This document shows positions 9,657-56,117 of a stretch of 64,000 nucleotides of DNA, one piece after another. The notes under the pieces were generated by a model, which was not told where the DNA came from, did not search any database, and worked only from the letters and a program-made list of their open reading frames with translations. The stretch's first letter is position 1. Each line of letters starts with the position of its first letter. Both the position numbers and the translations under genes were made by a program. Source of the stretch: an uncultured Candidatus Saccharibacteria bacterium (GTDB lineage Bacteria; Patescibacteriota; Saccharimonadia; Saccharimonadales; Saccharimonadaceae); contig CAMVFY010000001.1 in the NCBI GenBank assembly GCA_947166895.1, positions 7,522 through 71,521 on the forward strand, read 5' to 3'.

Positions 9657-9731
9657 GCGAGTGTAGTACAGCGGTTAGTATACAAGTTTTCCAAACTTGG
9701 GATGAGGGTTCGACTCCCTCCACTCGCACCA
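9657..9731 (+). tRNA. tRNA-Gly (TCC)
   Basis: Acceptor GCGAGTG/CACTCGC, anticodon arm caagt-ttTCCaa-acttg, GGTTCGACTCC, encoded CCA. Confidence 0.95.
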
Positions 9732-9808
9732 TTTTTGTGTCAGAAAAACTTTACAGTCGGGAGTCGGACCTTCGGTGCGACTCCCTCCACTTGCACCATT
9801 TTTGTGTC
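9711..9808 (+). repeat. 31-bp direct repeat of the tRNA-Gly 3' end (att-like)
   Basis: 9711-9741 versus 9778-9808, 30/31 identical. Confidence 0.9.
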
Positions 9809-9815
9809 TTTATAA

Positions 9816-9844
9816 TTGACATTTTGAGTAAAGTGTGATATAAT
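9816..9844 (+). promoter_or_regulatory. sigma70-type promoter
   Basis: TTGACA-17-TATAAT with AAGTGTG before the -10. Confidence 0.85.
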
Positions 9845-9899
9845 TGAGGTATGTAGCTTAAAATCTGGGAGCAAATTAGAGTAAAAGGAGGACATAACT

Positions 9900-10672: not shown

Positions 10673-12598
10673 ATGATTTTAAGCATTATTTTGGCAATCA
10701 TTGTGGCGCTGGCGATTGCTACGGCAACGCATTTGCTCCACGGGGGCGGGTTGACTGAAGAGGTCGAAACCCGTACAGGAAAAAAGAGGAGCAAGTTTGC
10801 TTTTCTGAAGGAAGTAGGTTCGGATGAATGGATAAAGGCCATTTGTGTCGGTCTGATAGTGGGGGCGATAAATTATTTTACGCCCAAGCTGTCGGCTGCA
10901 CTGTGGCTGGCTCCGGTTTTCTTGGCCGTAATGGTGGCCTGGTATATTTATTTGATGTACTGGTGGCACCGTGATGGTTCTGAGTGGATCGAAGTAATTC
11001 CGTTTGTCGTGCTAGCGGTTGTGTCGTTTTTTACGATGCGGGCTACAGCGATGGCAACAGCGGCGCTCTGGAACAGTGCGTTTTGGACTTCTGTTGTTGT
11101 AACTATTCCGTGGCTGTTCATTATGGCAACGATCGGATTTATCATTATCGATGCGTTTTATTTCCGCTATCGGGAAATGTATGAAGCTGAAGATGGTGAC
11201 TCCGATGAAGTGCTTGATGAAAAGGATGAGAAGAAGGGACATTATCATGCACTAGGCATTCTTGCCAGCGTGGTGACGACGATTATCCTGATTGTCATTT
11301 TGGCAACTGGGGTAAAGTGGTCTAGTTTCAATCTTCCGGCACGGAATGTGACTCAGCCAGTAGTGGTGGAGACGCCAACTGTAACGCCGAATGAGCCGGT
11401 GATAACTGAACGAGCGGCGCAGCCGTTCATAGCCTTTTTTAATCCGTCGATGCTGAAGGACGAGGACTCTTCGAACGATTTTAACTTTGGTTATAATCCG
11501 AGAGAGTTCTTTCCGGAGTGGACGGAGGCGAAGGATTTCGACCGTGATTTTCGCGATCGGATTGAAGTTGACCCGGCGCTACTCGCGGCAGATGCGGCTT
11601 GGCTTGATGCAGTGGTCGGAACCAGATACACTGGTAAATTTTATGACTCTTGCAAGGGTGACTGGGCGGAAACTATGAATCAGGCTAAAGTCAAGTTCAT
11701 GGAAGATCCGGAGCTTTATAAGGCGACTCGGGAAGCGTGTTTCGCTTTTCTCGATTCGGCGACAAAGGTCGAGCTGAAGGAAGCTGAGGATATGGACGAT
11801 CAGATGTATATGAACCCGTTCACGGTGGACGGAGTGCCTGACATCATCGTCATGAAAACGAACGACCACACTGGATTGTTCCTAGTGTATAGTTTCGAAA
11901 TTAAGGGAGAAGTGTTTGAAGTGGCGTACCGGATTGACTGTGGGTATCAGCCCACGAACGTCGAGAAGGTGATGAAGATTCCTCCGGTGAAACCGCCGGT
12001 GAATCCTACTCCGACACCCACTCCTACGCCCACTCCGACTCCGACTCCGACGCCTACGCCTACACCGACGCCCACACCGACTCCCACGCCTACTCCGACT
12101 CCGACACCGACTCCCACGCCGACTCCGACACCCACGCCTACTCCGACTCCGACGCCGGAACCGACGCCGGATCCTCCGGAGCCGTGGTGGCCTTATTATG
12201 ATAAGGATCCGCGCGAAGGAGTCCAGGGCGATCCAGTCGCCCCGAATGACAATCCGGGACCTGGACCGAACACCAACAACGGTCGCGGCGCGATGGAATC
12301 CACTGAGGATTTGGATACAAATTCCAATCACTATAACAGATATCGGGATTACCAGAAGGACCTCGATGAGTTGGAGGAAATCAACGACAATCAGAGAACT
12401 GGGGACGATAATAATCGGCCCTCGACTCCGGCACCGACGCCTGGCACAAACGTTGATAACAACGGAAACCGGGGCACTGGAAACGGCGGCATTAACAACC
12501 CGACTCCGGTGGAACCGTTGGTGGAAGAAGAAGACGGAGACACAATTGTCAACAATCCCTCGAATCCGGCTGGCGAATGGGGAGGCCCGCCGGATTAA
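10673..12598 (+). CDS. membrane-anchored protein with (PT)25 linker and Asn/Asp/Pro-rich tail
   Basis: About six N-terminal TM segments; Pro-Thr repeat; GGAGG SD. Confidence 0.8.
12005..12154 (+). repeat. (Pro-Thr)25 coding tandem repeat
   Basis: 25 consecutive CCN-ACN codon pairs with varied third positions. Confidence 0.95.
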
Positions 12599-12790: not shown

Positions 12791-14068
12791 ATGCGTAATA
12801 TTTACAAAAGCATTTTAGGCTTATCTGCTGCTGTAGTTATAGCAGCCGGTACGCTAACTCCTGCTATCGTAAATGCTTGGGGTGACTCTAACAATGGTCG
12901 TCCGAGCTATACGTTGTCGCAGATTGAAAATGGGGTACTTGGTAATACAATTACCTTTAACTCCATTTCAAATAACCAAAAAATCGGAAACGAAAAGAAT
13001 TTCGTCGGTGCAAAAGTAGCTGGTGAAAAGGTCACCACTTGGAATGCCGACACGATAAATGTGAAAGATGGCGAAACTTATACGATTCGTCTTTATGTTC
13101 ACAACAATAACCCCAAGGGGTTAAATGCAATTGCTAAAGATGTAAGAGCTACCTTTAGCGTTCCTACTACAGTTGCTAAAACTCAAACGATTATCGGGTA
13201 TCTTGATTCTTCAAATGCCTACCCGGCTCGTTATTGGGATGAAGTAACCCTTAAAGCTAGTGAGGATGTTTACCTTGAGTATGTTGACGGTTCGGCTAGG
13301 TATGTAAATGCCAAGCTTGGCACCGTTAAACTTGCAAACTCAGTGGTAACCTCTGGTGCGCTTTTGGGTTATGATAAATTGGACGGCAATATCCCTGGTT
13401 GTTATAAATATGACGGCGTAGTGATGATTGACGTTAAGGTCCATAGCTCTGTAGCTGCGAAGGTCTCTAAAACTGTGCGAATTAAGGGCAGCTCTGACAA
13501 GACTTGGAAAGAATCTGTTACCGCTAAAGTTGGTGATGAAGTAGAATTCCAAATTGAGTACGTGAATTTACTTGCATCGCAAGTGAATAATGTGATGATT
13601 CGGGATGTGCTTCCGACTAACATCGAGTACGTAAAAGATTCTACTTATCTTTATAATGCTGCTTACCAAAAGGGTATTTTGCTAAATGATAATACTTTGG
13701 TTACCAATGGTATTAACATCGGTAGTTACAGCCCTAAGGGTAATGCTTATGTTCGCTTTACTGGTAAAGTAGTGAATAAGACTTTGGCTTGTGGTTCTAA
13801 CCAGTTAGTTAACTGGGCAAGCGCTACGGTCAATAAGGATGTTTACAAGGATGATGCGTCAGTGATGGTTAATAGGGATGATGAAACCTGTAAGACCACT
13901 CCGACACCGACTCCTACTCCGACACCAACTCCTACTCCAGAACCGACTCCAACCCCAACCACAATAGTGTCGACGGGTCCGGAGACGATTGTAACTGGTG
14001 CGATTGGTGCTGGTTCGATCGTAACCGCTGCTGGTTACTTTATTGCTAGCCGTAAAAAGTTAATGTAA
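12791..14068 (+). CDS. secreted DUF11-like repeat protein with PT linker and xxTGP-type C-terminal anchor
   Basis: Signal peptide; KTVR...VTAKVGDEVEFQIEYVN...IRDVLP; STGP followed by TM helix and RKK. Start set by AAAGGA SD. Confidence 0.75.
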   Translation: MRNIYKSILGLSAAVVIAAGTLTPAIVNAWGDSNNGRPSYTLSQIENGVLGNTITFNSISNNQKIGNEKNFVGAKVAGEKVTTWNADTINVKDGETYTIRLYVHNNNPKGLNAIAKDVRATFSVPTTVAKTQTIIGYLDSSNAYPARYWDEVTLKASEDVYLEYVDGSARYVNAKLGTVKLANSVVTSGALLGYDKLDGNIPGCYKYDGVVMIDVKVHSSVAAKVSKTVRIKGSSDKTWKESVTAKVGDEVEFQIEYVNLLASQVNNVMIRDVLPTNIEYVKDSTYLYNAAYQKGILLNDNTLVTNGINIGSYSPKGNAYVRFTGKVVNKTLACGSNQLVNWASATVNKDVYKDDASVMVNRDDETCKTTPTPTPTPTPTPTPEPTPTPTTIVSTGPETIVTGAIGAGSIVTAAGYFIASRKKLM

Positions 14069-14145
14069 TTGACCGCTTCACTAGGGTGGTCTCAAAAATA
14101 AACTCCGTAACAGGGGTTTATTTTTTTGTGAAAAAGGAATTAAGC

Positions 14146-14174
14146 TTGACATTTTTTGTGAAGTGTGGTATAAT
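14146..14174 (+). promoter_or_regulatory. sigma70-type promoter
   Basis: TTGACA-17-TATAAT with AAGTGTG. Confidence 0.85.
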
Positions 14175-14272
14175 GAGAGTATAAAGTTAGAGGCAGCTTT
14201 GGTAGATTAAGTATTAGGAAGATTGTCAGAATTTCACTACATTTTGAAAATTAATATGGGGAGGATATTAAA

Positions 14273-20558: not shown

Positions 20559-21646
20559 TTGATTTCCTCGGGCTCTTGTTGGAGCCAGTAGCCGAATTTA
20601 TCGTAAACTTTGCCTACGATTTCGGTACGGGCGGCGACGAGGTCTTGATAGGACTTGGCAGATTCGTTAATGAGGATGAGAGAGGCTTTGTCGCTGACGC
20701 GGAAACCATGAAGTAGTTTGCCTTTGAGGCCGGCTTTTTCGATTAGCCAGCCGGAGTTGATTTTGTTGCCATCATGACCACGGTGGACTGGGTAGCCTTT
20801 GGCCTCAGCGGCGTCGGCTTCTTCGTTGGTGAGGTAGATGTTTTTGAAGAAAGAACCAGCGCTGGGGGTGGTTGATGGATCCGGTAGCTTGTCGGTGCGG
20901 ATGCGACTTACGATGTCACGGATGCCTTGGGGTGAGAAGTCGGTGCAGTTGTTTTCGGCGATGTAGCGTTCGACAGAATTGTAAAAAGGACGAGACATTT
21001 GGCCTTTTTTTAAGGCAAGTGTAACGGAGACGACGAAGTAGCGACCTTTTTCAGTGGTGTTGAGTAGGCTTTTACGGTATGAAAATTGAAGGTCGGACTT
21101 TGCTAAAGTTTTGAAAGTGTTAGTGACGGAATCGAAAACTTCGATTTCGACTAACGTGTCGGCAATTTCTTGACCGTAGGCACCGATGTTTTGGACAGGG
21201 GCAGCGCCGGCGAGACCAGGGATTTTGCTTAAGGCTTCGATGCCAGTAAGACCACGTTTACAAGCGAAGGCGACAACATCATCCCAGTATTCGCCACCCA
21301 TAACTTTCAAGCACGTTCCGCTCGGCGGGTCCTGCCGCGCCTTTTCCTCCCCCATTTCGCTGACGCTCAATGGGGGGCCCCCTCCAGGCGCGTCACCCGC
21401 TGATGTAATGTCTTGCTCGGATATGCCACGGATGCGGTTGGTGAGGATGACGCCGGGATAGCCTTCGTCGTGGCCGATGGTGTTGGCGCCATAGCCGAGG
21501 ATGAAAATCGGGAGATTGTTGGTACGAGCAAAATTATAAGCTTCGGGAATATCTTCGGGCTTTTCGATTTCGATAACATATCTTGCTGGGCCACCAAGAC
21601 GCATGGTGGTAAGGCTAGAAATCAAAACGTTTTCACTGATTCGCAT
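20555..21646 (-). CDS. murB: UDP-N-acetylmuramate dehydrogenase with in-frame insertion
   Basis: TTMRLGGPA, IPGLAGAAPVQNIGAYGQE, FSYRKS, PSAGSFFKN, SGWLIEKAGLKG, EPE. Confidence 0.94.
   Translation of the reverse strand: MRISENVLISSLTTMRLGGPARYVIEIEKPEDIPEAYNFARTNNLPIFILGYGANTIGHDEGYPGVILTNRIRGISEQDITSAGDAPGGGPPLSVSEMGEEKARQDPPSGTCLKVMGGEYWDDVVAFACKRGLTGIEALSKIPGLAGAAPVQNIGAYGQEIADTLVEIEVFDSVTNTFKTLAKSDLQFSYRKSLLNTTEKGRYFVVSVTLALKKGQMSRPFYNSVERYIAENNCTDFSPQGIRDIVSRIRTDKLPDPSTTPSAGSFFKNIYLTNEEADAAEAKGYPVHRGHDGNKINSGWLIEKAGLKGKLLHGFRVSDKASLILINESAKSYQDLVAARTEIVGKVYDKFGYWLQQEPEEIK
21308..21415 (+). repeat. GC-rich palindromic element inside murB
   Basis: Nested stems tcggcgggt/acccgctga and tgacgc/gcgtca; contains ACGCTCAA, shared with the pnp and ruvA copies. 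Confidence 0.6.
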
Positions 21647-21953: not shown

Positions 21954-22979
21954 ATGGCAAAAAAGGATGCGGTGGCGGAAAAGAAAAACGACAATGACGG
22001 AAAAAGTGAGGCTTTGAAACTCGCGATTTCGCAGATTACAAAACAATTTGGTGACGGTTCTATCATGAAACTAGGTGAGACTCCAAAAATGGACGTGGAG
22101 CTACTCCCGTCGGGTTCTTTGTCTTTGGATTTAGCATTAGGTGGTGGATATCCAAAGGGGCGAATTATTGAAATATACGGACCGGAATCTTCAGGCAAAA
22201 CGACTTTGGCTTTGCATGCGATTGCGGAGATTCAGAAACAGGGTGGACAGGCGGCGTTTATTGACGCGGAGCATGCACTTGATCCGGCTTACGCAAAAAG
22301 GATTGGTGTGGATACGGCGAATTTACTAATTTCGCAGCCGGACAATGGTGAGCAAGCACTCGAAATTACCGAGACTTTGGTGCGTTCTAACGCGGTGGAT
22401 TTGATCGTGGTTGATTCAGTGGCGGCACTAGTGCCACAGGCCGAGATTGATGGCGACATGGGTGAGGCTCAAATGGGACTTCAGGCAAGGCTAATGTCGC
22501 AGGCGATGCGAAAACTTACGGGTATTATTTCGAAGTCGCGTGCGACGGTGATATTTATCAACCAAATCCGGATGAAGATTGGCGTGATGTTTGGCAACCC
22601 AGAAACTACGACGGGTGGTAATGCACTGAAATTTTATGCGTCGGTGCGGATTGATATTCGGCGAATTGGGCAGATTAAGGAAGGCGATAACATTTCGGGT
22701 AACCGTACTAAAATTAAGGTCGTGAAGAATAAGATAGCGGCGCCTTTTCGCACGGCGGAATTTGACATTATGTATAATGAGGGGATTTCAAAAGCTGGTG
22801 ATGTATTGGACCTTGGTGTGCAATATAATGTGCTGGAGAAGTCTGGTGCGTTTATTAAGTATAACGGTGAAACATTGGGGCAAGGTCGCGAAGCGGTGAA
22901 AAAGTTATTCAAGGAAAAACCGGAATTGATGGCGGAAATTGAAGCCAAGGTACGCGAGAAAGCTTCTGCGGAAGAATAA
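21954..22979 (+). CDS. recA: recombinase RecA
   Basis: [53 protein letters not shown]. Confidence 0.99.
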
Positions 22980-23659
22980 TGATAATCACTAACTTAAAGC
23001 AGGGGGTGAAGAATCCGAATCGGGTGAATGTGTTTGTTGACGGAAAGTTTGAGTTTTCGTTAGATATCACGCAGGTAGTGGATTATAAATTGAAGGTCGG
23101 AAAGGAATTAACGGTTAAGGAGTTTGACGAGTTAAAAAAGGCGAGTGAATTTGGAAAGTTATATCAAAGGACTTTGGAATGGGTGCTAACGCGACCGAGG
23201 AGTGAGAAAGAGGTCCGAGATTACTTGGTGAGAAAACTGAAAACATCTTCTTCGGGACGCTCCTCGCTCCCGTCTTCACGGGGCTCGTCGCTGCGTCCTC
23301 GTAGCAACTGCGGATGCCCCTCAGAAGATATTTTCCAGTTTTCTCAGGCAATCATCGACCGTCTAATCACCAAGGGGTATCTGGATGATAGAAAGTTTGC
23401 AGAGTGGTACGTTCAGAATCGGTTTGTGAAGAAGGGGGTGTCGAGGAAACGTCTTCAGATGGAACTGATGAAAAAAGGGATTTCTCGCGAGATTATTGAT
23501 GAAGTATTAAATGCACGAAATGATGAGGAAGAAATTTTAAAGATAATCGCCAAAAAGCGGACAAAATATACGGACGAAAAGCTTATTCAGTATCTTTGTC
23601 GGCAGGGGTTTTCGTACGAGCTGGTGCGTAATCTTGTTCAGACTTACGAAAAGGATTGA
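22979..23659 (+). CDS. recX: regulatory protein RecX with in-frame insertion
   Basis: Follows recA; NRVNVFVDG, RPRSEKEVR, YLDDRKFA, YLCRQGF. Confidence 0.88.
   Translation: MIITNLKQGVKNPNRVNVFVDGKFEFSLDITQVVDYKLKVGKELTVKEFDELKKASEFGKLYQRTLEWVLTRPRSEKEVRDYLVRKLKTSSSGRSSLPSSRGSSLRPRSNCGCPSEDIFQFSQAIIDRLITKGYLDDRKFAEWYVQNRFVKKGVSRKRLQMELMKKGISREIIDEVLNARNDEEEILKIIAKKRTKYTDEKLIQYLCRQGFSYELVRNLVQTYEKD
23237..23338 (+). repeat. GC-rich palindromic element inside recX
   Basis: Arms ctgaaaacatcttct / agaagatattttccag; inner ends TTCGG...CCTCAGAAG match the pnp-leader copy; 102 bp. Confidence 0.75.
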
Positions 23660-24198: not shown

Positions 24199-24954
24199 TT
24201 ATATCATATCGGTAAAATTTGAAAGTGGCGTAGAATCTTTGATGTCATAGGTTCCAACCTTGGTGCGGCGCAGGGCGGTGAGATAGGCGCCAGTTTGAAG
24301 CTTGGCGCCGATATCTTCGGCTAACGTGCGGATGTAAGTGCCGGAGCTGCAGTGGATGCGGAGTTTGAGTTCGGGGTAGTTATAGCTTAAAATGTCGATG
24401 GAATAGATTTCAACTTCGCGAGAGGGGATTTTGAAATCTTGGCCTTTGCGAGCGAGCTTGTAGGCACGTTCACCGCCTATTTTGATGGCGGAGAATTTGG
24501 GTGGGGTTTGCACAATTTTACCAACGAATGTTCTGGTAATTGTCTCAACAGCATCCAACTCGGGGCGCGTCGCTCGCGCTCGTCGGCACGGGGCGAGCGC
24601 GCTACTCCTCGCCTTGCCAGGCTCCGGACCCCCTTCGTTTGGATACTGTTGAGACTTTGAAAATGGTTGAATCATTCCCTCCGGGTCGCCGGTGGTGGAG
24701 GTGTAGCCGAGTTTCAGGGTGGCTTCATAGATTTTGTCGAGTTTTAGAAAATCGGTGGATTTTTTGGTCATTTGGCCGGTTAAGAGGATTAAGAGGCCGG
24801 TGGCGAAAGGGTCTAATGTCCCAGTGTGGCCGACTTTGACTTTGTGGCCGAGTTTGGCTTTTAGATACCCACGGACTTTGGCGACGACGCCGAAGCTAGA
24901 AATCCCCGCGGGTTTGTCGATTAGGATAACTTGATTATCGGGAGTATTTTCCAT
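24199..24954 (-). CDS. truB: tRNA pseudouridine(55) synthase with in-frame insertion
   Basis: IDKPAGISSFGVV, KVGHTGTLDPFATGLL, PPKFSAIKIGG, CSSGTYIRTLAEDIG. Confidence 0.96.
   Translation of the reverse strand: MENTPDNQVILIDKPAGISSFGVVAKVRGYLKAKLGHKVKVGHTGTLDPFATGLLILLTGQMTKKSTDFLKLDKIYEATLKLGYTSTTGDPEGMIQPFSKSQQYPNEGGPEPGKARSSALAPCRRARATRPELDAVETITRTFVGKIVQTPPKFSAIKIGGERAYKLARKGQDFKIPSREVEIYSIDILSYNYPELKLRIHCSSGTYIRTLAEDIGAKLQTGAYLTALRRTKVGTYDIKDSTPLSNFTDMI
24542..24655 (+). repeat. GC-rich palindromic element inside truB
   Basis: 17-bp arms gtctcaacagcatccaa / ttggatactgttgagac (16/17); core starts CTCGG; 114 bp. Confidence 0.8.
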
Positions 24955-27926: not shown

Positions 27927-27984
27927 TGCGCTAGGTTGCTTTAGATAGTAGACAATTTGGGCAAGAGGTGATATAATAGAGCGC

Positions 27985-28803: not shown

Positions 28804-28890
28804 TAGGAGCCATCATAATCTCCTCTTCGGACACGCTCAAGGGCGCTCGCCCAAGCTTACGGTCCTCAGAAGAGATTATGATGGCTTCTA
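28804..28890 (+). repeat. palindromic element in the pnp leader
   Basis: About 22-bp imperfect arms around a 41-bp core (28827-28867). Confidence 0.85.
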
Positions 28891-36117: not shown

Positions 36118-36963
36118 ATGATGCGAAATGATATGTTTTTAATTACGCCGATGAACCAAAAGGTGTATCTAAATCGGGGGGAAGAATACCGTGGGTCGAT
36201 TCGGGTGGTGAACCCGGCGGAAGCAACAAGAGATTTTCACTACCGGGTGGACGTGGCACCATACGGTGTAGTGGGCGAGGGGTATGATGCGGACCTTACG
36301 AGCGAGTCGCAATGGACGCAGATAGTGGATTGGATTACGATTGAAAATAACGAAGGCGTGCTGGCGCCAAACGAAGTGCGGGATGTGGAGTTTGTAATAA
36401 AAGTGCCTGAGGATGCGATAGTGGGGGCGCAAACGGCAGCACTAGTAGTGAGGCAGGAAGATGACGAGAAGGCTATCGATGGGGTGAAGGTAGAGAACGT
36501 TTTTGAGATGGCGAGTATTATTTATGGCCAGGTGCTTGGAATTGAGGAGCACGATGCGTCGATACTAGCGATGGATGTTCCGGGGTTTTCGACAACGCCG
36601 GACGTAGCGGTGACGGCGAGTTTTGACAATCATGGGAACGTGTTTGAAGAGGCAGAAACCAAGATTGTTGTAAAAAATGCACTGAGCGGTGAAGTGATAC
36701 TTCCGACTAGTGAGGCTTCTGGTGAATATACCGAGATAGTAATGCCCGACACTACTCGTAAAGTGACGCGTAAGATAGACGATTTGCCGATGCTGGGGGT
36801 GGTACATGTTGAATACCAAGTGAAATATAACGGTGAAGAAATGATGATGGAGAGGGATTTGGTGATTTGCCCGATTTGGTTTATGGTGATGATGGCGGTA
36901 GTAGTAGGGATGATCATAACGACGATTGTAATGCTGATAAAAAAATATCATAAAAAAGCTTGA
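36118..36963 (+). CDS. DUF916/WxL-interacting-like membrane-anchored protein
   Basis: ITP...YL..G..Y.GSI.V.N beta-sandwich start, FDNHGNV, C-terminal IPIW-like segment plus TM plus KK. Confidence 0.55.
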   Translation: MMRNDMFLITPMNQKVYLNRGEEYRGSIRVVNPAEATRDFHYRVDVAPYGVVGEGYDADLTSESQWTQIVDWITIENNEGVLAPNEVRDVEFVIKVPEDAIVGAQTAALVVRQEDDEKAIDGVKVENVFEMASIIYGQVLGIEEHDASILAMDVPGFSTTPDVAVTASFDNHGNVFEEAETKIVVKNALSGEVILPTSEASGEYTEIVMPDTTRKVTRKIDDLPMLGVVHVEYQVKYNGEEMMMERDLVICPIWFMVMMAVVVGMIITTIVMLIKKYHKKA

Positions 36964-37067
36964 CATTTTATAGCATTAGCGTTATATTGAGGTTACAAAA
37001 GGTCATACAAAAATAAAAAGGTCATACAAACATACCAAGCTTTGGTGTTTTGTGCCAAGGAAAACAC

Positions 37068-46368: not shown

Positions 46369-49300
46369 AAAAAATGGCTTGATTGTGGGGATTTTGGCGT
46401 TTGCTTGTTGTGCTTTATGTGGTGGGAATGTGTTTGCGGATGGTGATGGATGGGTGGGGACTGGCGGGACTCCTGGTGGACAATCTGGGGGAGGAGGCAG
46501 TAGTTGTTTAGCGAACGTTTACGATACCAATGGAACTATATTGCAGTATGGCTATGATAATTATCGATATAGAATAGACTGTGCTAAAGTTTCGTGGATT
46601 TATTATGAGGCCCAGCCTGGCGGGGGAAACTATCCAGTTACGATTGCGCCAGACTCTAGACTTGGCGGTGGTGAAACGGCGCAGATTCCTGAGGTTTGCT
46701 ATCATGATGGGCAGGGTGGTTTTTGGCACTATGGTGTAAATAGGCAAAGTACGAAAAATGGAATAATAGAATGTTCTTGGTCTGGATGTGTGCCGAATTA
46801 TAGTGCGATGCCGCACAAGTGGGGGCACTGGATGACGGTGACGGTTGGTGATGGGTACGGAGAGGCGATGCCTGGTCAGGAAGGTTATGACAATCGTTTT
46901 AATTTGTCGCCAGATAATCCTTTTGGATGGCATGTAAATGAATTGGGGCATACGATGTATTCGTCTGTCGATAGCGGCACGAGGTATACGGCTACGAGAG
47001 CGGCTCTTTCGGGGGATTCCGAACTGCTAGATGATTATAAAAATGCTCTGCTATATTTTGACGACAATAGAAGCGAAAACGAAATAATGAATTTGACGCG
47101 GATTGATAATGGCGTGTGGGGATTTTGTGCGTGGGAGGGAATGAATAAAGAGTATTATGCATCGTCGAATATTTCTAATGGAATAAACTGGAAAGGGACC
47201 GGAAGAGTTAAGGAAAACGCCACGGTAAACTTAAACCCGGATCGTTTGGTGACAATACCGGACGGTGCGACGAATATAACGGTGGCGGGGGCTTTAAGGT
47301 TTAGTCACAATATTTATGCGTCTTTTGAGGATACGTCAAGCTCTAACTGGAGAGTAGAGAGGAGCGGGAATGGTTTTTCTGATTCTAGCGTTTCTATGAG
47401 TAGAACCAATACACCTGCTGCACAATATTCTGGTTCGACGACGATAACTAGTAAAATTACTAGCAGTCTTTATCAGGCGACAACGCGGCCGTTTGGGGAT
47501 GGAGAAAATTATTACATATCTAGGGATGTTTTTGATGTGACTTTTTCGAAAGAGGGGACTTATGAGTTTTGTGAGTCTTTATATTTAAGTAATAGTGCGG
47601 TTTCTAATAAAAGATTGACTACTGTATGCACTACTTATAAAGTTTCAAAAGAATCGTCGCCGCCACCGCCACCGCCTAGTGTTGAAATTTGTGATAGATG
47701 GACGCCAGCTAGCTACACGAGTTCGTATTTGGATTCCGATAATAATGGTCAGGGGACGACTTCCGTGGTTTCAAAGGTTAGAAATAACACGTTGGGTGGA
47801 GATTATGTAAATAGCGTATATGCTAAACCAACGGACAATATAAATTGGGCACACTGTTATTATCCGGGGATACAAAAGATTGCATCGGCGCTAGCTACAA
47901 GTGTTCATGGTAGTCATAGCGAAATGCTACCAGACGGAAGTAAGACCACCAATATCAATACCATTATGTCACAACTATATGCGTGGGGTAATTATTTTAG
48001 CGTGACTTCGTCTGTGAGTAAAGGGAGCAATTTTAGAAATCCGAATTCTACTAGTACTGGCAACTATCGTGTTGGTACGTTGACGCCGACTATTTATAAT
48101 GGTGGTAGATATGCGATTGGGAGTTCTGGAGTGAAGTCGCTGCTTGATAACACTTATCGTGTTGAGTACGGTAGCGGAAAAAATAAAGCCGGTGCAACGT
48201 TGACTGAAACAAATAAGAGTAGTAGGCCGACTTCTGCAGTGGTCTGGAATGAACACATCCATGTTTGGTCTTGTAATTATGAAGAAAGTTGCGAAAAATG
48301 CGGTTCTTATTCGTGTAATTGTGTTTCATGTAATTGCGAGGAAGTTTGTACGGGTGAGGGAGAGGACCAGTCATGTACGATAGTATGTGATACTTGCTGC
48401 GATATTTGTTGCTATTCTTGTGCGTGGGGTAGATGTGAACATTCGAACAATTACTATGGGAGTTTTTGTCATGAGAATGTCGCTTCTGACCATGCTGACG
48501 TGCTAGTGCCGTATAATTTCATTAATACTGCTACTATTAGTTTAAACTCTAGCTACGTTTATGCTGGTGAAATAGCAACGATTGGTTCGTCGGCTGTACA
48601 GATTCGGACTAAAAGTAATAATGTAACGCGGGGGACTTATGCTACACAGGTAGATGATGCCAAAGTGAAATTCGTGGCGTATTTATCTAGTAGTAACTCT
48701 GGCTCGGCAAAAGAAGGAGTAGGAAGCGGCAAAGCGTACAATATTTGTAATGCACTAAGTGGCTATGAGGCTTGTAATGAACTGGATTCGCGCGATGGAG
48801 CTACGCTAAATTCTAGTGGGGTGTTAGGCCTTGGGACTTCGCCAAGCACACAAGTAGCGTCTAACTCTCTAACTTCGCTCATGGGTTCTTCTTATAATGT
48901 TTATGATGGTCGGGCGGGTAAGTATTATTGCGTGGTGGCGGCGGTTTATCCGTATACTAGTGGTACTGATACCAATATGGATGCAAGTGGTAGCAATAAT
49001 TGGTATGTGTCGGCGCCTTCTTGCGCGGTAATCGCAAAAAAACCAAGCCTCGAAGTATGGGGGAATGGGCTTTATACTGCTGGAAAAGTGTTTACTGCTT
49101 CGGCTGAGAAGAGGGTGATAGATGGTTTTGTGGGCTTTACCCCGAGATCATCAAGCAATACTACTGTTTTTGGTTCGTGGGTAGAAACTAACATTATTGC
49201 TAATGGGCAAGTGGCGGGATTGGCAAGTGGAGCGGCAACGGGATTTCCGGGTTATACTATCAGGACTCTAACTAATGGAGTTCAGAGACTGAGCGGTAGT

Positions 49301-50026
49301 AGGGAAGGAAGTACTAGAAGATTTTGTACGTATCGTAGCCCACTAACAATGCCAAATGCTGGTTGTCTTACTACAATAGGGGGGTTACCTGGAGTGAACG
49401 TTGGTAGCTTGGGCAGTCCGGCGGCAGGGATGAACAAGCCCGTAGACCGTGACGCCCTAATTGCTCGCTTCATGACTGAAGACGGAACCTTTAAATATAG
49501 AAATACCTATACAAGACTCAGTCAACTAGTCTCAGAACTTGGCTCTACTATCATCCCAGCTGGTCAAAACCAAACTTACGTGATTGATGCTAGTGGTAAA
49601 ACATTTACCATTGATTCCAATATCCAGTATGCAGAACTTTACAATAACTTTACGGATATACCAAAACTAATTATTAGGGCAGACAATATCAATATCAATT
49701 GTAACGTTAATAGAATTGATGCAGTACTAATTGCTGACAAAATACAAAATAACACAGTAGCAGGCAACGTAAATACTTGCAGCAATGCTGGTGGGGTTGA
49801 TGACAGTGCTAGATCTAACCAACTTAAAATCAATGGTGCAGTAATCACTGGTTCGCTTACAGCTAATCGTACTTATGGTGCTGGAGTAGGAGCTTATTCA
49901 GTAATTCCAGCTGAAATCGTTGATTATGACTCTTCCCTTTATATTTGGGGTTCACAACGAGCTGAGGCTTCTGCTTCGGGGAAGTTAGATGTAATCTATT
50001 TACGCGAATTGTCTCCAAGATTATAA
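46355..50026 (+). CDS. giant secreted protein, paralog 1, with Cys-rich insert
   Basis: Signal peptide; colinear with 50610-54161; ends RELSPRL. Confidence 0.8.
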   Translation: MRLSKKNGLIVGILAFACCALCGGNVFADGDGWVGTGGTPGGQSGGGGSSCLANVYDTNGTILQYGYDNYRYRIDCAKVSWIYYEAQPGGGNYPVTIAPDSRLGGGETAQIPEVCYHDGQGGFWHYGVNRQSTKNGIIECSWSGCVPNYSAMPHKWGHWMTVTVGDGYGEAMPGQEGYDNRFNLSPDNPFGWHVNELGHTMYSSVDSGTRYTATRAALSGDSELLDDYKNALLYFDDNRSENEIMNLTRIDNGVWGFCAWEGMNKEYYASSNISNGINWKGTGRVKENATVNLNPDRLVTIPDGATNITVAGALRFSHNIYASFEDTSSSNWRVERSGNGFSDSSVSMSRTNTPAAQYSGSTTITSKITSSLYQATTRPFGDGENYYISRDVFDVTFSKEGTYEFCESLYLSNSAVSNKRLTTVCTTYKVSKESSPPPPPPSVEICDRWTPASYTSSYLDSDNNGQGTTSVVSKVRNNTLGGDYVNSVYAKPTDNINWAHCYYPGIQKIASALATSVHGSHSEMLPDGSKTTNINTIMSQLYAWGNYFSVTSSVSKGSNFRNPNSTSTGNYRVGTLTPTIYNGGRYAIGSSGVKSLLDNTYRVEYGSGKNKAGATLTETNKSSRPTSAVVWNEHIHVWSCNYEESCEKCGSYSCNCVSCNCEEVCTGEGEDQSCTIVCDTCCDICCYSCAWGRCEHSNNYYGSFCHENVASDHADVLVPYNFINTATISLNSSYVYAGEIATIGSSAVQIRTKSNNVTRGTYATQVDDAKVKFVAYLSSSNSGSAKEGVGSGKAYNICNALSGYEACNELDSRDGATLNSSGVLGLGTSPSTQVASNSLTSLMGSSYNVYDGRAGKYYCVVAAVYPYTSGTDTNMDASGSNNWYVSAPSCAVIAKKPSLEVWGNGLYTAGKVFTASAEKRVIDGFVGFTPRSSSNTTVFGSWVETNIIANGQVAGLASGAATGFPGYTIRTLTNGVQRLSGSREGSTRRFCTYRSPLTMPNAGCLTTIGGLPGVNVGSLGSPAAGMNKPVDRDALIARFMTEDGTFKYRNTYTRLSQLVSELGSTIIPAGQNQTYVIDASGKTFTIDSNIQYAELYNNFTDIPKLIIRADNININCNVNRIDAVLIADKIQNNTVAGNVNTCSNAGGVDDSARSNQLKINGAVITGSLTANRTYGAGVGAYSVIPAEIVDYDSSLYIWGSQRAEASASGKLDVIYLRELSPRL
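49437..49989 (+). repeat. 553-bp direct repeat, copy 1
   Basis: No mismatch found by eye against 53572-54124. Confidence 0.92.
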
Positions 50027-50638: not shown

Positions 50639-53600
50639 TTGGCAGATAAAGCTTGTCGCTATTTTGATGATTTTTTTGGCTTTAGGTATAAGTTTTGCTG
50701 CAGGAAAGGAAGTTTTTGCCGAAAATGGGGCGGAGGTACTTACTGGCAACGTTTTGAACAAGTGGGGCGGAGGTGGCAGTGGAGTTAACTGTAATGACCG
50801 ACTATTTTCGACTTATGCCGCTGAGTGCCAGGGTTACTCATGGGTATTTTACGCAAGCACAGGAAATGTATCAGACATGACTTTTCGGCCGGATATGACT
50901 GCCAATGATTGGCCTCAATCTTCTCAGGGTATTTATATTCCGCAAACCTGTTCTGAGCATACGGAAGATGGTGGTGGTTTTTGGCATTTTGGTCAGAATG
51001 CTAGGGCGCTGAGTAACAGCGGCTGGAGTTATTTTGGGAACTTTATGTATTTGAATGGCTATGGTGGAAAAGCGACGGATACTTATACTTACTCTACGTC
51101 GTCTGGGAGTTATGGTCATATTTTTACGACTAGCTATCAGTATGGAAGCGGTAACTTAACTGTACCGCCTTCTGGGGTGAGCCAATCTTTGTATAAGAAT
51201 GGTGCTGAAATATATTACGCAAGTAAGGTTGAATCTGGGACGAATCATAGTGGGGATAGTGGAGTTTGGGCTGATTGGTTGAAGGCTTATAAATACAAAA
51301 ATGGTTCGGAATATACCGGAAGTGATTTCCCCAGTGATTTGTATGCGTTTTGCTACTGGGGGTCAATGGATTCGGAATACTTTGCGCGTTCAAGTATTTC
51401 GAACGGGATTGAATGGAAGAGTACAAATTTTGTGGGGACGTCGGATGAAACGCCCCGTAAGGTGACACTCACTAAACGGGTGGTCGTGATTCCTGAAGGT
51501 TCTAATGAGGTTAAGGTGGAAGGCGGTTTAAGGTTTAGCCACAACATATATGCGTCGTTTAAAGATAAAGAGAATACGGCGTGGAATGTGGTAAAGGAAT
51601 TTCCTAGCGACGGAGTGAGTGCAACAAAAACTAATCAGCCAGCGATATACAGTGGTTCTACGCCTTTGAATGTTGATTTTCTTGAGTCTCTTTATCAAGC
51701 TCCGGCAAACAAGCAACCATTTGTGGATGGTAATGATACTTATATTTCTAGGGATGTTTATGATTTAGTCTTTACTAAAGCTGGGACTTACACTTTTTGT
51801 GAAAAATTGTCGATCAATAATAAGAAGACCGAAAATGCAAATAGAGAGATGACTGCAGTTTGTGCGGTTTATGAAGTTAAGAAGAATGATACTCCTCCAG
51901 ACGGTGGCGGTGGTGGTGGCGTTACGCCCCCTCCGTCCACATGTGGTTTGTGGACACCGGCTAGCTACACGGCATCTAGCAAAACGTCTGGTAACACTTC
52001 GGTGGTGTCAAAGGTGAGAAATGCGACACTTGGTACCAGCTATGAGGACAGCGTATATGCTAAGCCAACTGATAACACACAGTGGATTCACTGTTATTAT
52101 CCGGGCGCACAAAAGGTGGCTTTTACGGATGCTACAATGGTTCACGGAGCACACGACTCGTCGCTAAGTGCGGGAGGAACTACCGCAAACACGAATGTGG
52201 CACTTTCGAGCTTTGCGCCATGGTCTAATCAATTTAAGGTTACATCTACGAACCTTAGAAACCCGTCTCCAAATGGGGGAAGTTATAGCTACGGTGACTC
52301 AGCGACTAAATCCTTAGAAGATACGAGTTATAACGTCGAATATGGTACCGGTAAGAATAAGGCCGGCAAAACTTTGGTAGAAACTTCGACTGGCAAGTTG
52401 GCCTACGCAAATGTTACCAATGAGGGAAAACACAGCTGGGCGTGTGACTATTACGAGTCATCAAGCTGTAGCAACTGTGGTTCGTATTCTTGTAATTGTT
52501 CTACGGATGAAGACGGAAATGAGTCGTGTGATACATGTTGCTATAGTTGTACTTATTCGCATAGTAATTGTACTCACTCAAATGATTATATCGCTCACAG
52601 TAATGGTGGAACTGTTACTGATCATGCAGATGTATTAGTGCCATTTAACTTTTACAATGTGACTACAATTACGCTGAAAGACGGGCCTGTGTATTCTGGT
52701 GAAACGGCTACGATTAGCTCTTCTAATGTTCAGACGCTAACTAGAACCAATAATGTGACACGAGGGACCTACGCTACGCATGTAGAAAATGCAAAAGTAG
52801 TGTTTGCGGCGTATGTTTCGTCTAGCGGTAGCGGCAGTGCGAAAGAAGGTATTGGGAGCGGAAAAAGTTATGACATTTGTGGTGCAGTTAGTGGGGCGGA
52901 GGATTGTACGGAGATAGATAGTCGGGATGGACTCGCTTTGAATTCGAGCGGTGTTTTGAAATTAAACTCTTCGGAGAAAACTGAAGCGGCATCGAGCTCG
53001 TTAACTTCTCTTATGAGTTCGACGTATAACGCCTTTGATGCTTCGGCCGGTAAGTATTATTGTGTTGTGGCGGCGGTTTATCCATACACGGTGAGTTCTG
53101 ATACGGATATGAACGCTGCTGGTAGCAATAGCTGGTATGTTTCGGCTCCGAGTTGTAGGGTGATTGCCAAAAAGCCAGCTTTTCAGGTATGGGGAAATGG
53201 TTTATACACTGCTGGTAAAGTATACACGATTTCGGCTGAAAAGCGTATAACGAAGGGTTTTTATGATTTATCTAGAAGTACAGCTAAGGACGGGAAGAAT
53301 TTGACGACCTTTGGCTCTTGGGTGGAAACCAGTATTATTGCTAATGGTCAAGTGGCGGGGTTGGCAAGTGGTGCAGCGACGGGATTTTCTGGCGATACCG
53401 CAAGGACCTGGGCGCAAGGCTTAGGGGGAAGTAAAAATAGTATTTCTTCTAGTAGCTCTGGTGTTTGTGTGCTTGGTCCGTTGACTTTTCCGAATATAAG
53501 ATGTGTAACGCAGGGATCGCTTCCGGGTATATCTGCCAGCGTTGTCGGTGGTTCAGGGGCTAAGATGGCGGAGCCCGTAGACCGTGACGCCCTAATTGCT

Positions 53601-54161
53601 CGCTTCATGACTGAAGACGGAACCTTTAAATATAGAAATACCTATACAAGACTCAGTCAACTAGTCTCAGAACTTGGCTCTACTATCATCCCAGCTGGTC
53701 AAAACCAAACTTACGTGATTGATGCTAGTGGTAAAACATTTACCATTGATTCCAATATCCAGTATGCAGAACTTTACAATAACTTTACGGATATACCAAA
53801 ACTAATTATTAGGGCAGACAATATCAATATCAATTGTAACGTTAATAGAATTGATGCAGTACTAATTGCTGACAAAATACAAAATAACACAGTAGCAGGC
53901 AACGTAAATACTTGCAGCAATGCTGGTGGGGTTGATGACAGTGCTAGATCTAACCAACTTAAAATCAATGGTGCAGTAATCACTGGTTCGCTTACAGCTA
54001 ATCGTACTTATGGTGCTGGAGTAGGAGCTTATTCAGTAATTCCAGCTGAAATCGTTGATTATGACTCTTCCCTTTATATTTGGGGTTCACAACGAGCTGA
54101 GGCTTCTGCTTCGGGGAAGTTAGAGACAGTCTATATCCAAGAACTATCGCCGAGATTATAG
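50610..54161 (+). CDS. giant secreted protein, paralog 2, with Cys-rich insert
   Basis: Signal peptide; ends QELSPRL. Confidence 0.8.
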   Translation: MMRVCQSKNNWQIKLVAILMIFLALGISFAAGKEVFAENGAEVLTGNVLNKWGGGGSGVNCNDRLFSTYAAECQGYSWVFYASTGNVSDMTFRPDMTANDWPQSSQGIYIPQTCSEHTEDGGGFWHFGQNARALSNSGWSYFGNFMYLNGYGGKATDTYTYSTSSGSYGHIFTTSYQYGSGNLTVPPSGVSQSLYKNGAEIYYASKVESGTNHSGDSGVWADWLKAYKYKNGSEYTGSDFPSDLYAFCYWGSMDSEYFARSSISNGIEWKSTNFVGTSDETPRKVTLTKRVVVIPEGSNEVKVEGGLRFSHNIYASFKDKENTAWNVVKEFPSDGVSATKTNQPAIYSGSTPLNVDFLESLYQAPANKQPFVDGNDTYISRDVYDLVFTKAGTYTFCEKLSINNKKTENANREMTAVCAVYEVKKNDTPPDGGGGGGVTPPPSTCGLWTPASYTASSKTSGNTSVVSKVRNATLGTSYEDSVYAKPTDNTQWIHCYYPGAQKVAFTDATMVHGAHDSSLSAGGTTANTNVALSSFAPWSNQFKVTSTNLRNPSPNGGSYSYGDSATKSLEDTSYNVEYGTGKNKAGKTLVETSTGKLAYANVTNEGKHSWACDYYESSSCSNCGSYSCNCSTDEDGNESCDTCCYSCTYSHSNCTHSNDYIAHSNGGTVTDHADVLVPFNFYNVTTITLKDGPVYSGETATISSSNVQTLTRTNNVTRGTYATHVENAKVVFAAYVSSSGSGSAKEGIGSGKSYDICGAVSGAEDCTEIDSRDGLALNSSGVLKLNSSEKTEAASSSLTSLMSSTYNAFDASAGKYYCVVAAVYPYTVSSDTDMNAAGSNSWYVSAPSCRVIAKKPAFQVWGNGLYTAGKVYTISAEKRITKGFYDLSRSTAKDGKNLTTFGSWVETSIIANGQVAGLASGAATGFSGDTARTWAQGLGGSKNSISSSSSGVCVLGPLTFPNIRCVTQGSLPGISASVVGGSGAKMAEPVDRDALIARFMTEDGTFKYRNTYTRLSQLVSELGSTIIPAGQNQTYVIDASGKTFTIDSNIQYAELYNNFTDIPKLIIRADNININCNVNRIDAVLIADKIQNNTVAGNVNTCSNAGGVDDSARSNQLKINGAVITGSLTANRTYGAGVGAYSVIPAEIVDYDSSLYIWGSQRAEASASGKLETVYIQELSPRL
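53572..54124 (+). repeat. 553-bp direct repeat, copy 2
   Basis: No mismatch found by eye against 49437-49989. Confidence 0.92.
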
Positions 54162-55530: not shown

Positions 55531-56036
55531 GGATTCTTGGAATTGATCCGGGGATTGGAATCTGTGGGTTTGGGTTGATTGAAACGACGTCGCGGGCGCG
55601 GGCGCTAGATTTTGGTGCAGTTACAACGATGGTGGATGCGCCTTTGCCGGCTCGGTTGAAAGAACTATACGATTCCTTGTCGGAAGTATTTGAGGAGACG
55701 AAACCAGAGATGGTAGCCGTAGAAAAGTTGTTTTTTGCAAAAAACATTACGACTGGAATTGCGGTGGCTGAGGCGAGGGGGATTGTGCTACTTGTTGCTG
55801 AGCAGCATGGGTTACCGGTTTATGAATATACTCCGAACGAAATCAAAAAGAGTTTGACTGGTTATGGTGCGGCGACTAAAACTCAGATTGAGGAAATGGT
55901 GCGAGTGCATTTGGGGCTTGAGTGCAAGCCAAAGCCGGATGATGCGGCGGATGCGCTGGCGGTGGCGATTACTTGCAGTTTTCTTTATGAGCATGGTCAA
56001 AATCAAGAATATAGTTTTTCAAATTCGCGTCGTTAA
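55527..56036 (+). CDS. ruvC: Holliday junction resolvase RuvC
   Basis: ILGIDPG, VEKLFF, AEARG, YTPNEIK..LTGYG.A.K, PDDAADALAVA. Confidence 0.96.
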   Translation: MRILGIDPGIGICGFGLIETTSRARALDFGAVTTMVDAPLPARLKELYDSLSEVFEETKPEMVAVEKLFFAKNITTGIAVAEARGIVLLVAEQHGLPVYEYTPNEIKKSLTGYGAATKTQIEEMVRVHLGLECKPKPDDAADALAVAITCSFLYEHGQNQEYSFSNSRR

Positions 56037-56117
56037 AATATGAGATTTTCTTTCTCGGACACGCTCAAGGGCGCTCGCCCGAGCTTATGGTCCTCGAAAT
56101 GAAAATCTCATATTTTA
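56034..56117 (+). repeat. palindromic element between ruvC and ruvA
   Basis: Perfect 17-bp arms taaaatatgagattttc / gaaaatctcatatttta around a 41-bp core that is 39/41 identical to 28827-28867. Confidence 0.9.

Follow-up and report, generated by a model that had tools for sequence, protein, structure and literature searches.

The recX locus

The window, by which we mean the whole 64,000-nt stretch of DNA analysed here, belongs to a ruminant-gut Saccharibacterium whose genome (G000) is 660 kb long, has a G+C content of ~44% and is 93% complete. Within it, recA and recX follow one another on the forward strand, and the recX reading frame contains a long hairpin in which locus-specific arms enclose a repeated core, here called type A. 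The features of this locus are the following.

21954-22979, + strand: recA, from the ORF list; its stop is overlapped by the recX start (TAATG)
22979-23659, + strand: recX, an intact ORF of 226 aa with matches to RecX_HTH1, RecX_HTH2 and RecX_HTH3 and with the insert inside it; AlphaFold mean pLDDT 84
23229-23346, no strand assigned: whole recX hairpin, 118 nt, with a locus-specific outer stem, a terminal stem and two inner hairpins; supported by fold z-scores
23229-23243, + strand: left locus-specific arm, encoding VRKLK including the conserved R-K codons; not common to the leuS copy
23244-23328, + strand: type A core, 85 nt, with a 98% identical copy in leuS of G000 and 86-99% identical copies in other species
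23245-23256, + strand: 5' half of the terminal stem (ATCTTCT, unpaired TC, GGG); its partner is 23317-23329 (CCCC, TC, AGAAGAT)
23269-23283, + strand: inner hairpin 1, CCCGTCTTCACGGGG, a module common with the truB-type family (25-nt matches); 4 of 7 pairs covary
23290-23316, + strand: inner hairpin 2 with the invariant block GTCCTCGTAGCAACTGCGGA, the most conserved part, unchanged in 80 copies
23329-23346, + strand: right locus-specific arm, encoding IFQFS; its residues follow the bases of the left arm

An earlier note on this DNA had claimed an in-frame palindromic insert of 102 bp in recX, at 23237-23338. The claim is borne out by relatives that do not have the insert, by the intact ORF and by a hairpin far beyond what shuffled sequences form. 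The coordinates, the peptide and the description of the arms stand, while the extent had to be refined: the hairpin spans 118 nt, and the unit repeated elsewhere is its inner 85 nt. The locus-specific arms (TGAGAAAACTGAAAA and TTTCCAGTTTTCTCA) pair at 14 of 15 positions. Folded as RNA, the hairpin reaches −53.5 kcal/mol versus −33.6 ± 3.8 kcal/mol for shuffled sequences (z = −5.25, with none of 200 shuffles as good), and folded as DNA it gives z = −5.3. The z-score of −5.25, together with control windows, rules out a chance palindrome. The core has 64% G+C, and in a 100-nt composition window the segment stands at ~60% versus ~44% for the genome, with a local reversal of the GC skew.

Comparison with other species established that the segment is a lineage-specific in-frame insertion. 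RecX matches are split into residues 1-88 and 122-226 in each of the 16 genomes that were searched outside the family but within the order, and the same split was found in several genomes of the same genus. G001 and G002 read DYLGRKVYEKKLDKKYIADVIEKLKNKKYLDD, a DYL...YLDD stretch of 32 residues, versus 57 residues in the G000 protein. The Pfam RecX_HTH1 match covers profile positions 11-26 in G000 versus 2-39 in the ortholog from G002, which is the nearest RecX sampled and has a native linker and no insert. In an ortholog alignment the segment does not align to normal RecX sequence in distant orthologs, in keeping with an insert. Split ortholog matches, the shorter linker of G001 and G002 and the interrupted HTH1 thus rule out a native RecX linker; in the insert-free relatives an ordinary helical linker occupies the site. 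A RecX tree built with the linker masked places the G000 protein beside that of G002, which has no insert (support 96/91), and is otherwise poorly resolved.

The insert in the protein

The peptide TSSSGRSSLPSSRGSSLRPRSNCGCPSED corresponds to RecX residues 89-117, the loop encoded by the 85-nt core (TSSSGRSSLPSSRGSSLRPRSNCGCPSE). In an AlphaFold model of RecX built with 120 homologs, residues 89-114 have no secondary structure and lie between helix 76-88 and helix 115-131, with pLDDT below 50 for residues 90-111 and about 90 for the flanking helices. According to this model the core is a disordered loop that joins helices 2 and 3 of the first three-helix domain of RecX, and the remaining fold is predicted to be intact. 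The helix ends are encoded by the two arms of the hairpin, the left arm providing the end of helix 2 (VRKLK) and the right arm the start of helix 3 (IFQFS).

Reading frames were compared across the type A copies described below. Almost all of them (68 of 72) lie within ORFs of at least 120 aa, 35 in sense and 33 in antisense to the host gene. About 61 of the 68 coding copies use frame F3 or R1, both of which are hydrophilic; F1 and R2 are open but rarely used, and the two frames containing stop codons are never used. Since two hydrophilic frames hold ~61 of 68 copies, reading through the core is favoured over splicing or bypassing, and the core appears to be translated into protein. Tryptic peptides predicted for the RecX insert include SSLPSSR and SNCGCPSEDIFQFSQAIIDR.

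A superfamily of GC-rich nested hairpins

A second copy of the type A core lies in leuS (G000, C20:6876-6960), 98% identical, in frame and read in the same frame as in recX. Self-comparison of the 660-kb genome revealed ~37 GC-rich elements in five related families, including murB, truB and pnp-upstream types, and their host genes are functionally unrelated to one another. Four further elements lie in the window.

21321-21406, no strand assigned: murB-type element, related, GC-rich, in frame in murB
24542-24655, no strand assigned: truB-type element with 17-nt locus-specific arms, in frame in truB
28804-28890, no strand assigned: pnp-upstream intergenic element, a 37-nt core (28829-28865) inside 23-nt locus-specific arms
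56034-56117, no strand assigned: second intergenic pnp-type core, whose arms differ from those of the pnp-upstream copy

The match that the earlier note had seen between the inner ends of the recX segment and the element before pnp is real (TCTCCTCTTCGGACACGCTC...GGTCCTCAGAAGAGA at 28820-28876). The note had also tied coding and non-coding copies into one family, and this tie holds, a pnp-type core having been found in the recX hairpin of another species; the recX hairpin of locus L167 carries GGACACGCTCAAGGGCGCTCGCCCAAGCTTACGGTCC, identical at 37 of 37 positions to 28829-28865 of the window (checked at the DNA level). Type A and pnp-type cores have a common junction, ...TC/GG(G)AC...G(Y)CC(C)/TC..., where the slash marks the junction. 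Type A, murB-, truB- and pnp-type elements form one superfamily of nested-hairpin GC-rich repeats.

Of 151 genomes of the genus, ~30 have full-length type A cores that are 86-99% identical. Type A is without a match in about half of the genus genomes, and empty sites occur in many close relatives. The 72 type A copies are distributed over 18 orthologous sites. The invariant 20-mer GTCCTCGTAGCRACTGCGGA was found at 76 loci in a collection of species-representative genomes, 74 of them in Ca. Saccharibacteria/Ca. Nanosyncoccus MAGs from the guts of sheep, goat, yak, buffalo and roe deer; the two matches outside the Saccharibacteria are attributable to chance, and spread of the type A core across phyla was rejected. 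Viral, phage and plasmid collections gave no match to type A, and a phage or plasmid vector was dropped from consideration. No Rfam family matched the element at E ≤ 1.

Locus-specific arms and their pairing

Identity between the recX and leuS copies ends exactly at the core, and both stems run on for ~15 nt further. This outer stem, 12-30 nt long, is different at every locus, and its positions serve as ordinary codons where relatives lack the insert. The 79 copies have 73 distinct arms between them; the two arms of one copy pair at a mean of −18.2 kcal/mol versus −6.3 ± 3.3 kcal/mol for arms taken from different loci (p = 3 × 10−45), and in families A, T, P and U of G000 arm pairing is far above that of control windows. 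No palindrome beyond chance was found at the recX and leuS sites of insert-free orthologs.

The arms are made of host-gene sequence. The net gain of length in recX is 75 nt, although the hairpin measures 118 nt. Where G000 has an empty site, the native gap between anchors is 18-30 nt versus arms totalling 30-33 nt; the arms therefore take the place of native codons and are not added to them. In recX, the outermost bases of the left arm are the conserved R-K codons (AGA AAA); the complementary right arm reads TTT TCT, and the G002 codons at that place are unrelated. As the left arm keeps the R-K codons and the G002 codons opposite the right arm bear no relation to it, the sequences favour a native left arm that would have been copied to the right. 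At the leuS site, AVKP resembles the native FAKP. At the sites empty in G000 both arms are near random identity to the empty-site sequence.

The pairing is also maintained. Across 80 type A copies, 98% of the stem cells in the alignment are paired. Twelve of the 21 pairs have changed on both sides, in 101 cells versus 19.7 in shuffles (none of 500 shuffles reaches 101), and shifting the 3' partners by one to three columns abolishes the signal. In the terminal stem 8 of 9 pairs covary, around a constant TC/TC internal loop that adjoins GGG/CCC. The tetranucleotides CGTC (in hairpin 1) and GTAG (in the 20-nt invariant block) of the type A core are free of covariation and positioned at stem-loop borders. 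The invariant block of inner hairpin 2 is, from its conservation, a candidate recognition site.

The recX sockets of 13 species show what this upkeep does to a protein. The outer stem is near perfect throughout, with compensatory changes: the left-arm Leu codons CTC, CTG and CTT correspond to GAG (E), CAG (Q) and AAG (K) in the right arm, and AAG (Lys) followed by CTC on the left corresponds to GAG CTT on the right (E-L in place of E-F). A synonymous Leu or Lys change on the left is in this way answered on the right by an E/Q/K or F/L replacement, and for that reason we conclude that base pairing dictates residues of RecX. The stems are held paired by compensatory change even at the cost of amino-acid replacement. 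Between species, the cores at the recX site are 90.4% identical versus 66.9% for the flanking recX DNA.

Exchange of cores between sockets

What occupies one and the same hairpin socket varies between species: the core may be another one, or the same one flipped. Among 120 metagenomic RecX homologs, the frame K-L-K-x-S-S-S ... S-S-E-D-x-x-E-F-S encloses type A forward, type A reversed (SFEGHPQLLRGRSDEPREDGREERPEKD), two other cores (types B and C) or a pnp-type core, as well as a short form with an internal deletion and tandem or nested forms. The leuS site of other species may contain type A, in one orientation or the other, a different core, or no core, and its arms differ from species to species. 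Pairs of type A copies at the same site comprise 104 links with flipped and 152 with the same orientation. At two sites that are occupied by type A in other species, the core found in G000 is of the murB or truB type.

The mean identity of copies is 0.906 at the same site in different species, 0.889 at different sites of one genome and 0.864 at different sites of different genomes. Same-site copies being the most alike and the within-genome excess slight, much of the pattern may be due to vertical persistence, that is, to old insertions inherited under constraint with occasional exchange. The difference between 0.889 and 0.864 is a weak signal of within-genome homogenisation.

Orientation with respect to replication

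Core orientation was compared with local GC skew, which for the genus was taken from 8-kb loci, 550-nt flanks being too noisy. In G000, 33 of 37 copies are oriented with the skew (p = 1 × 10−6), and across the genus 56 of 75 (p = 2 × 10−5). Whether a core is sense or antisense tracks the place of its host gene on the G-rich strand (Fisher odds ratio 8.4, p = 9 × 10−5). Within each contig, genes on either strand agree in the sign of their third-codon-position skew, which is therefore of the replication type. Core orientation thus follows the replication strand and not the strand of the host gene. The bias is not total (75-89%), and the largest site cluster does not show it.

A preference for G·T over A·C in the stems, sought as a sign of RNA function, was not found, and a function at the RNA level was set aside for want of an excess of G·U pairs. 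We infer that the element acts as DNA, probably folding when it is single-stranded at the replication fork.

Origin and spread of the element

In our judgement the recX segment is probably a copy of a genus-wide, non-autonomous selfish DNA element, similar to the Rickettsia palindromic elements (RPE), with stems that are built and kept by template switching. Among the traits that recall RPEs, it is a dispersed multi-copy palindrome that stands in frame in unrelated intact genes (recX, leuS, murB, truB and others) with empty orthologous sites. In the mechanism we propose, a core would land in, or be copied into, a tolerant loop. Intramolecular template switching, by quasi-palindrome correction or arm-to-arm conversion, would then rewrite one flank as the complement of the other, and the same process would later keep the stem paired. 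Recombination or copy-choice at the TC/GGG...CCC/TC junction would copy, swap and invert cores between sockets, and selection would retain only copies in tolerant surface loops and hydrophilic reading frames. Template switching has already been put forward to account for coding palindromes in the mitochondria of Nematomorpha (PMC6649704).

How the cores move is the less certain part. No consistent target-site duplication was found; the best flanking direct repeat has a mean length of 3.5 nt versus 3.0 nt in a cross-locus control, with no constant length. A long parent element bounded by element termini was not found in G000, and an autonomous parent there was dropped as an explanation. G000 has no Y1/RAYT transposase (PF01797), nor have 114 of 121 genus genomes, and in the seven with a match its presence is unrelated to element load; this absence speaks against a RAYT/Y1 transposase as the mover. 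Less probably, the hairpins would be a mobile system of a new kind, with fixed, locus-specific sockets in housekeeping genes and coupled to the replication strand, in which conserved cores are copied, swapped and inverted at the junction by something other than a classical transposase. It would be driven by a structure-specific saccharibacterial enzyme that is still undescribed, or else by polymerase copy-choice alone. If copy-choice were the sole driver, the host replisome would be all that a genome parasite needed to spread and to rewrite neighbouring codons.

As regards mobility, the chief rival is a hairpin-specific enzyme that has escaped recognition. It might be encoded in the genome or supplied from outside, be HUH/Y1 RAYT-like or a hairpin-tip nuclease/ligase, and move single-stranded cores at the TC/GGG...CCC/TC junction; its preferred targets would be hairpins already present on the lagging-strand template, and it could coexist with stem building by template switching. 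The orientation bias of the cores along the replication strand speaks for it, such a bias being a hallmark of single-stranded DNA transposition in IS200/IS605 elements. So do the precise exchange of cores at one junction, with different families in one socket, and the lack of covariation in the GTAG-containing 20-nt block and in the CGTC of hairpin 1, as would be expected of a site recognised by a protein. REPs inserted within palindromes are, furthermore, on record (PMC3733652). However, PF01797 is missing from G000 and nearly all element-bearing genomes, and the 6-7 genomes that have it are not element-rich; phage, plasmid and viral collections hold no copies; the insert-free orthologs offer no pre-existing hairpin to target; and GTAG and CGTC do not lie at the ends of the palindrome, where REP tags lie by definition. 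We regard such an enzyme as unlikely.

Considerably less probable is that the hairpins benefit the host and are kept by selection, as strand-polar signals for replication, repair or segregation, as sites for nucleoid or topology proteins, or as elements of mRNA stability or pausing. A host function would fit the invariant 20-mer and the strong conservation of the core, which exceeds that of the surrounding essential gene (90% versus 67%), and it would agree with compensatory changes that preserve stems despite amino-acid change, with strand polarity and with persistence at orthologous sites in many species. It is hard to reconcile with the patchy presence of the elements (type A missing from about half of the genus genomes, many sites empty), with unrelated cores and both orientations at the same site, and with host genes that have no function in common. 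The equal frequency of sense and antisense copies and the lack of a G·U preference speak against a role in mRNA.

Removal or skipping of the segment before a protein is made, by intron-like excision, as a mini-intein or by bypassing like that of the Magnusiomyces mitochondrial 'byp' elements, can be practically dismissed: the stem would be long and stable in mRNA, and bypassed GC-rich palindromic inserts do exist in one yeast mitochondrion (cited in PMC6649704), but the host frame is open in every coding copy, stop-containing frames are never used while two hydrophilic frames dominate, there are neither matched take-off and landing codons nor a stop codon after the take-off site, no Rfam intron or ribozyme matches, 29 residues are far below intein size, and with half of the copies antisense no single RNA structure or sequence would meet the ribosome.

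Relation to known palindromic elements

The selfish, template-switching element that we favour comes closest to the RPEs (Ogata et al. 2000, in the summaries of PMC10969869 and PMC3733652). Both are small palindromic repeats in the reduced genome of a host-dependent bacterium, often in frame in unrelated housekeeping genes; both comprise several families, add a surface peptide compatible with the fold (a predicted one in our case) and have no dedicated transposase. The cores described here are, however, shorter (37-100 nt, compared with ~100-150 nt for RPEs) and much richer in G+C than the genome. Each copy, unlike an RPE, tips a locus-specific stem made of gene sequence, cores are swapped or flipped within one socket, and their orientation goes with the replication strand. 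RPEs are reported to lose the identity of their repeats over time (PMC6649704); the stems here, by contrast, are actively kept paired. Common descent with RPE-1 to RPE-10 is unlikely because the type A 20-mer is restricted to Saccharibacteria MAGs.

With REP/BIME and the GTAG- and CGTC-tagged repeats (Di Nocera et al. 2013, PMC3733652) the elements have in common short GC-rich stem-loops, some of them in replication or repair genes. REP-type repeats of the CGTC type have no transposase and some families are embedded in larger palindromes (PMC3733652). CGTC and GTAG are both present in the type A core. A REP tag, however, stands at one end of a single palindrome of 20-40 bp that is mostly extragenic and downstream of genes (PMC3733652), whereas the type A tetranucleotides lie at stem-loop borders inside a two-hairpin core, 94% of the copies are intragenic and there is no RAYT.

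Bacterial MITEs (Correia, ERIC and the QMITE of Coxiella; PMC10969869, PMC5896051) are likewise non-coding and multi-copy, with terminal inverted repeats and occasional in-frame fusions. By contrast, the searches for Y1 and for a parent element disclosed no insertion sequence with the same ends as our elements, target-site duplications are wanting, and the inverted 'termini' lie outside the core and differ at each locus. Nematomorpha mitochondria contain coding palindromes (Mikhailov et al. 2019, PMC6649704) that resemble our elements in having both arms protein-coding, in a conversion-like upkeep of pairing and in dynamic gain and loss; these palindromes, however, are perfect, reach 284 bp, belong to an animal mitochondrion and have no shared mobile core at the tip (PMC6649704).

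Finally, single-stranded DNA transposition of the IS200/IS605 kind also depends on DNA hairpins, leaves no target-site duplication and has an orientation tied to the replication strand. Here, on the other hand, there is no TnpA/Y1 gene, and no fixed target tetranucleotide with left-end and right-end hairpins could be defined. By analogy, the resemblance may point to a way of working, not to membership.

Bearing on reduced genomes

To our knowledge, selfish palindromes that stand in frame in genes are known mainly from Rickettsia, and in the library searched we found no published description joining Saccharibacteria or CPR with MITEs or palindromic elements. Saccharibacteria, unrelated to Rickettsia, ultra-reduced, episymbiotic and here from ruminant guts, hold a rich counterpart. 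Three of their features may have a bearing on how such elements work: covarying stems built at each locus, exchangeable cores and replication polarity. With stems of host codons kept paired, DNA structure determines residues of RecX, of LeuRS and of further essential proteins, which makes the elements a tractable natural system for template-switch mutagenesis. They also bear on how new protein loops arise and on how repeats spread in genomes nearly devoid of genes for recombination and transposition. At a practical level, the inserts inflate and fragment domain matches in CPR proteins and can break short-read assemblies.

Element families and their insertion sites

The murB-type family, a GC-rich hairpin family related to the type A core (the 85-nt repeat at the hairpin tip in recX), has the inverse layout. 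Its outer stem, GGGCGGGTCCTGCCGG...CCGTCACCCGCCC, is the conserved part among the copies of the source genome (G000), whereas the inner tip is a mini-palindrome that differs from copy to copy (CCCCCATT/AATGGGGG, CCCCAAAATTTTT/AAACATTTTGGGG and others). Examples in G000 are:

window 21321-21406, in murB
contig C12, 6849-6936
contig C5, 20347-20439

The last of these occupies a site that holds a type A core in other species, and at a second such site (C9:2458-2483) G000 has a truB-type core fragment, from another related family. Sites identical at the codon level are thus repeatedly occupied by different families.

In some RecX orthologs the insertion site holds not one hairpin unit but two or three, in tandem or nested, and one RecX is as long as 308 amino acids. 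Orthologs with multiple units are:

L002, the recX locus of genome G017
P0012, P0016 and P0094, proteins of alignment A4

Y1 transposases in the genus

Intact Y1 (IS200/IS605-type) transposases are encoded in a few genomes of the genus (G023, G053, G067 and G094; loci L163-L166), mostly among the larger ones (0.9-1.2 Mb). In none of these genomes was the load of type A elements conspicuous.

Replication-strand asymmetry

Replication-strand asymmetry in G000 is very pronounced for a 660-kb CPR genome. GC skew at the third codon position is unusually strong (0.4-0.6) on contigs C1 (of which the window is 7522-71521), C4, C6, C10 and C15, and its sign is identical for genes of either strand.

Other repeats in the window

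Downstream of a tRNA gene (9657-9728), a 35-nt copy of its 3' end (9707-9741) was found at 9774-9808, 67 nt away and 94% identical; this copy may have been left behind when an element integrated at the gene. A promoter-like block of ~40 nt (TTGACA ... TG.TATAAT) is repeated upstream of several genes:

9812-9855
14142-14185
27945-27981
36956-36999

A multi-kb gene block is present in two diverged tandem copies (47255-49715 versus 51489-53850) spaced by 4.1-4.2 kb, 70-97% identical in segments, with one 300-nt segment at 97% identity. Finally, long runs of a CCGAC(T/A)CC repeat, with a period of 6 or 12 nt, occupy 11963-12192 and 13871-13986; their predicted products are low-complexity stretches rich in Thr and Pro, in two adjacent genes.
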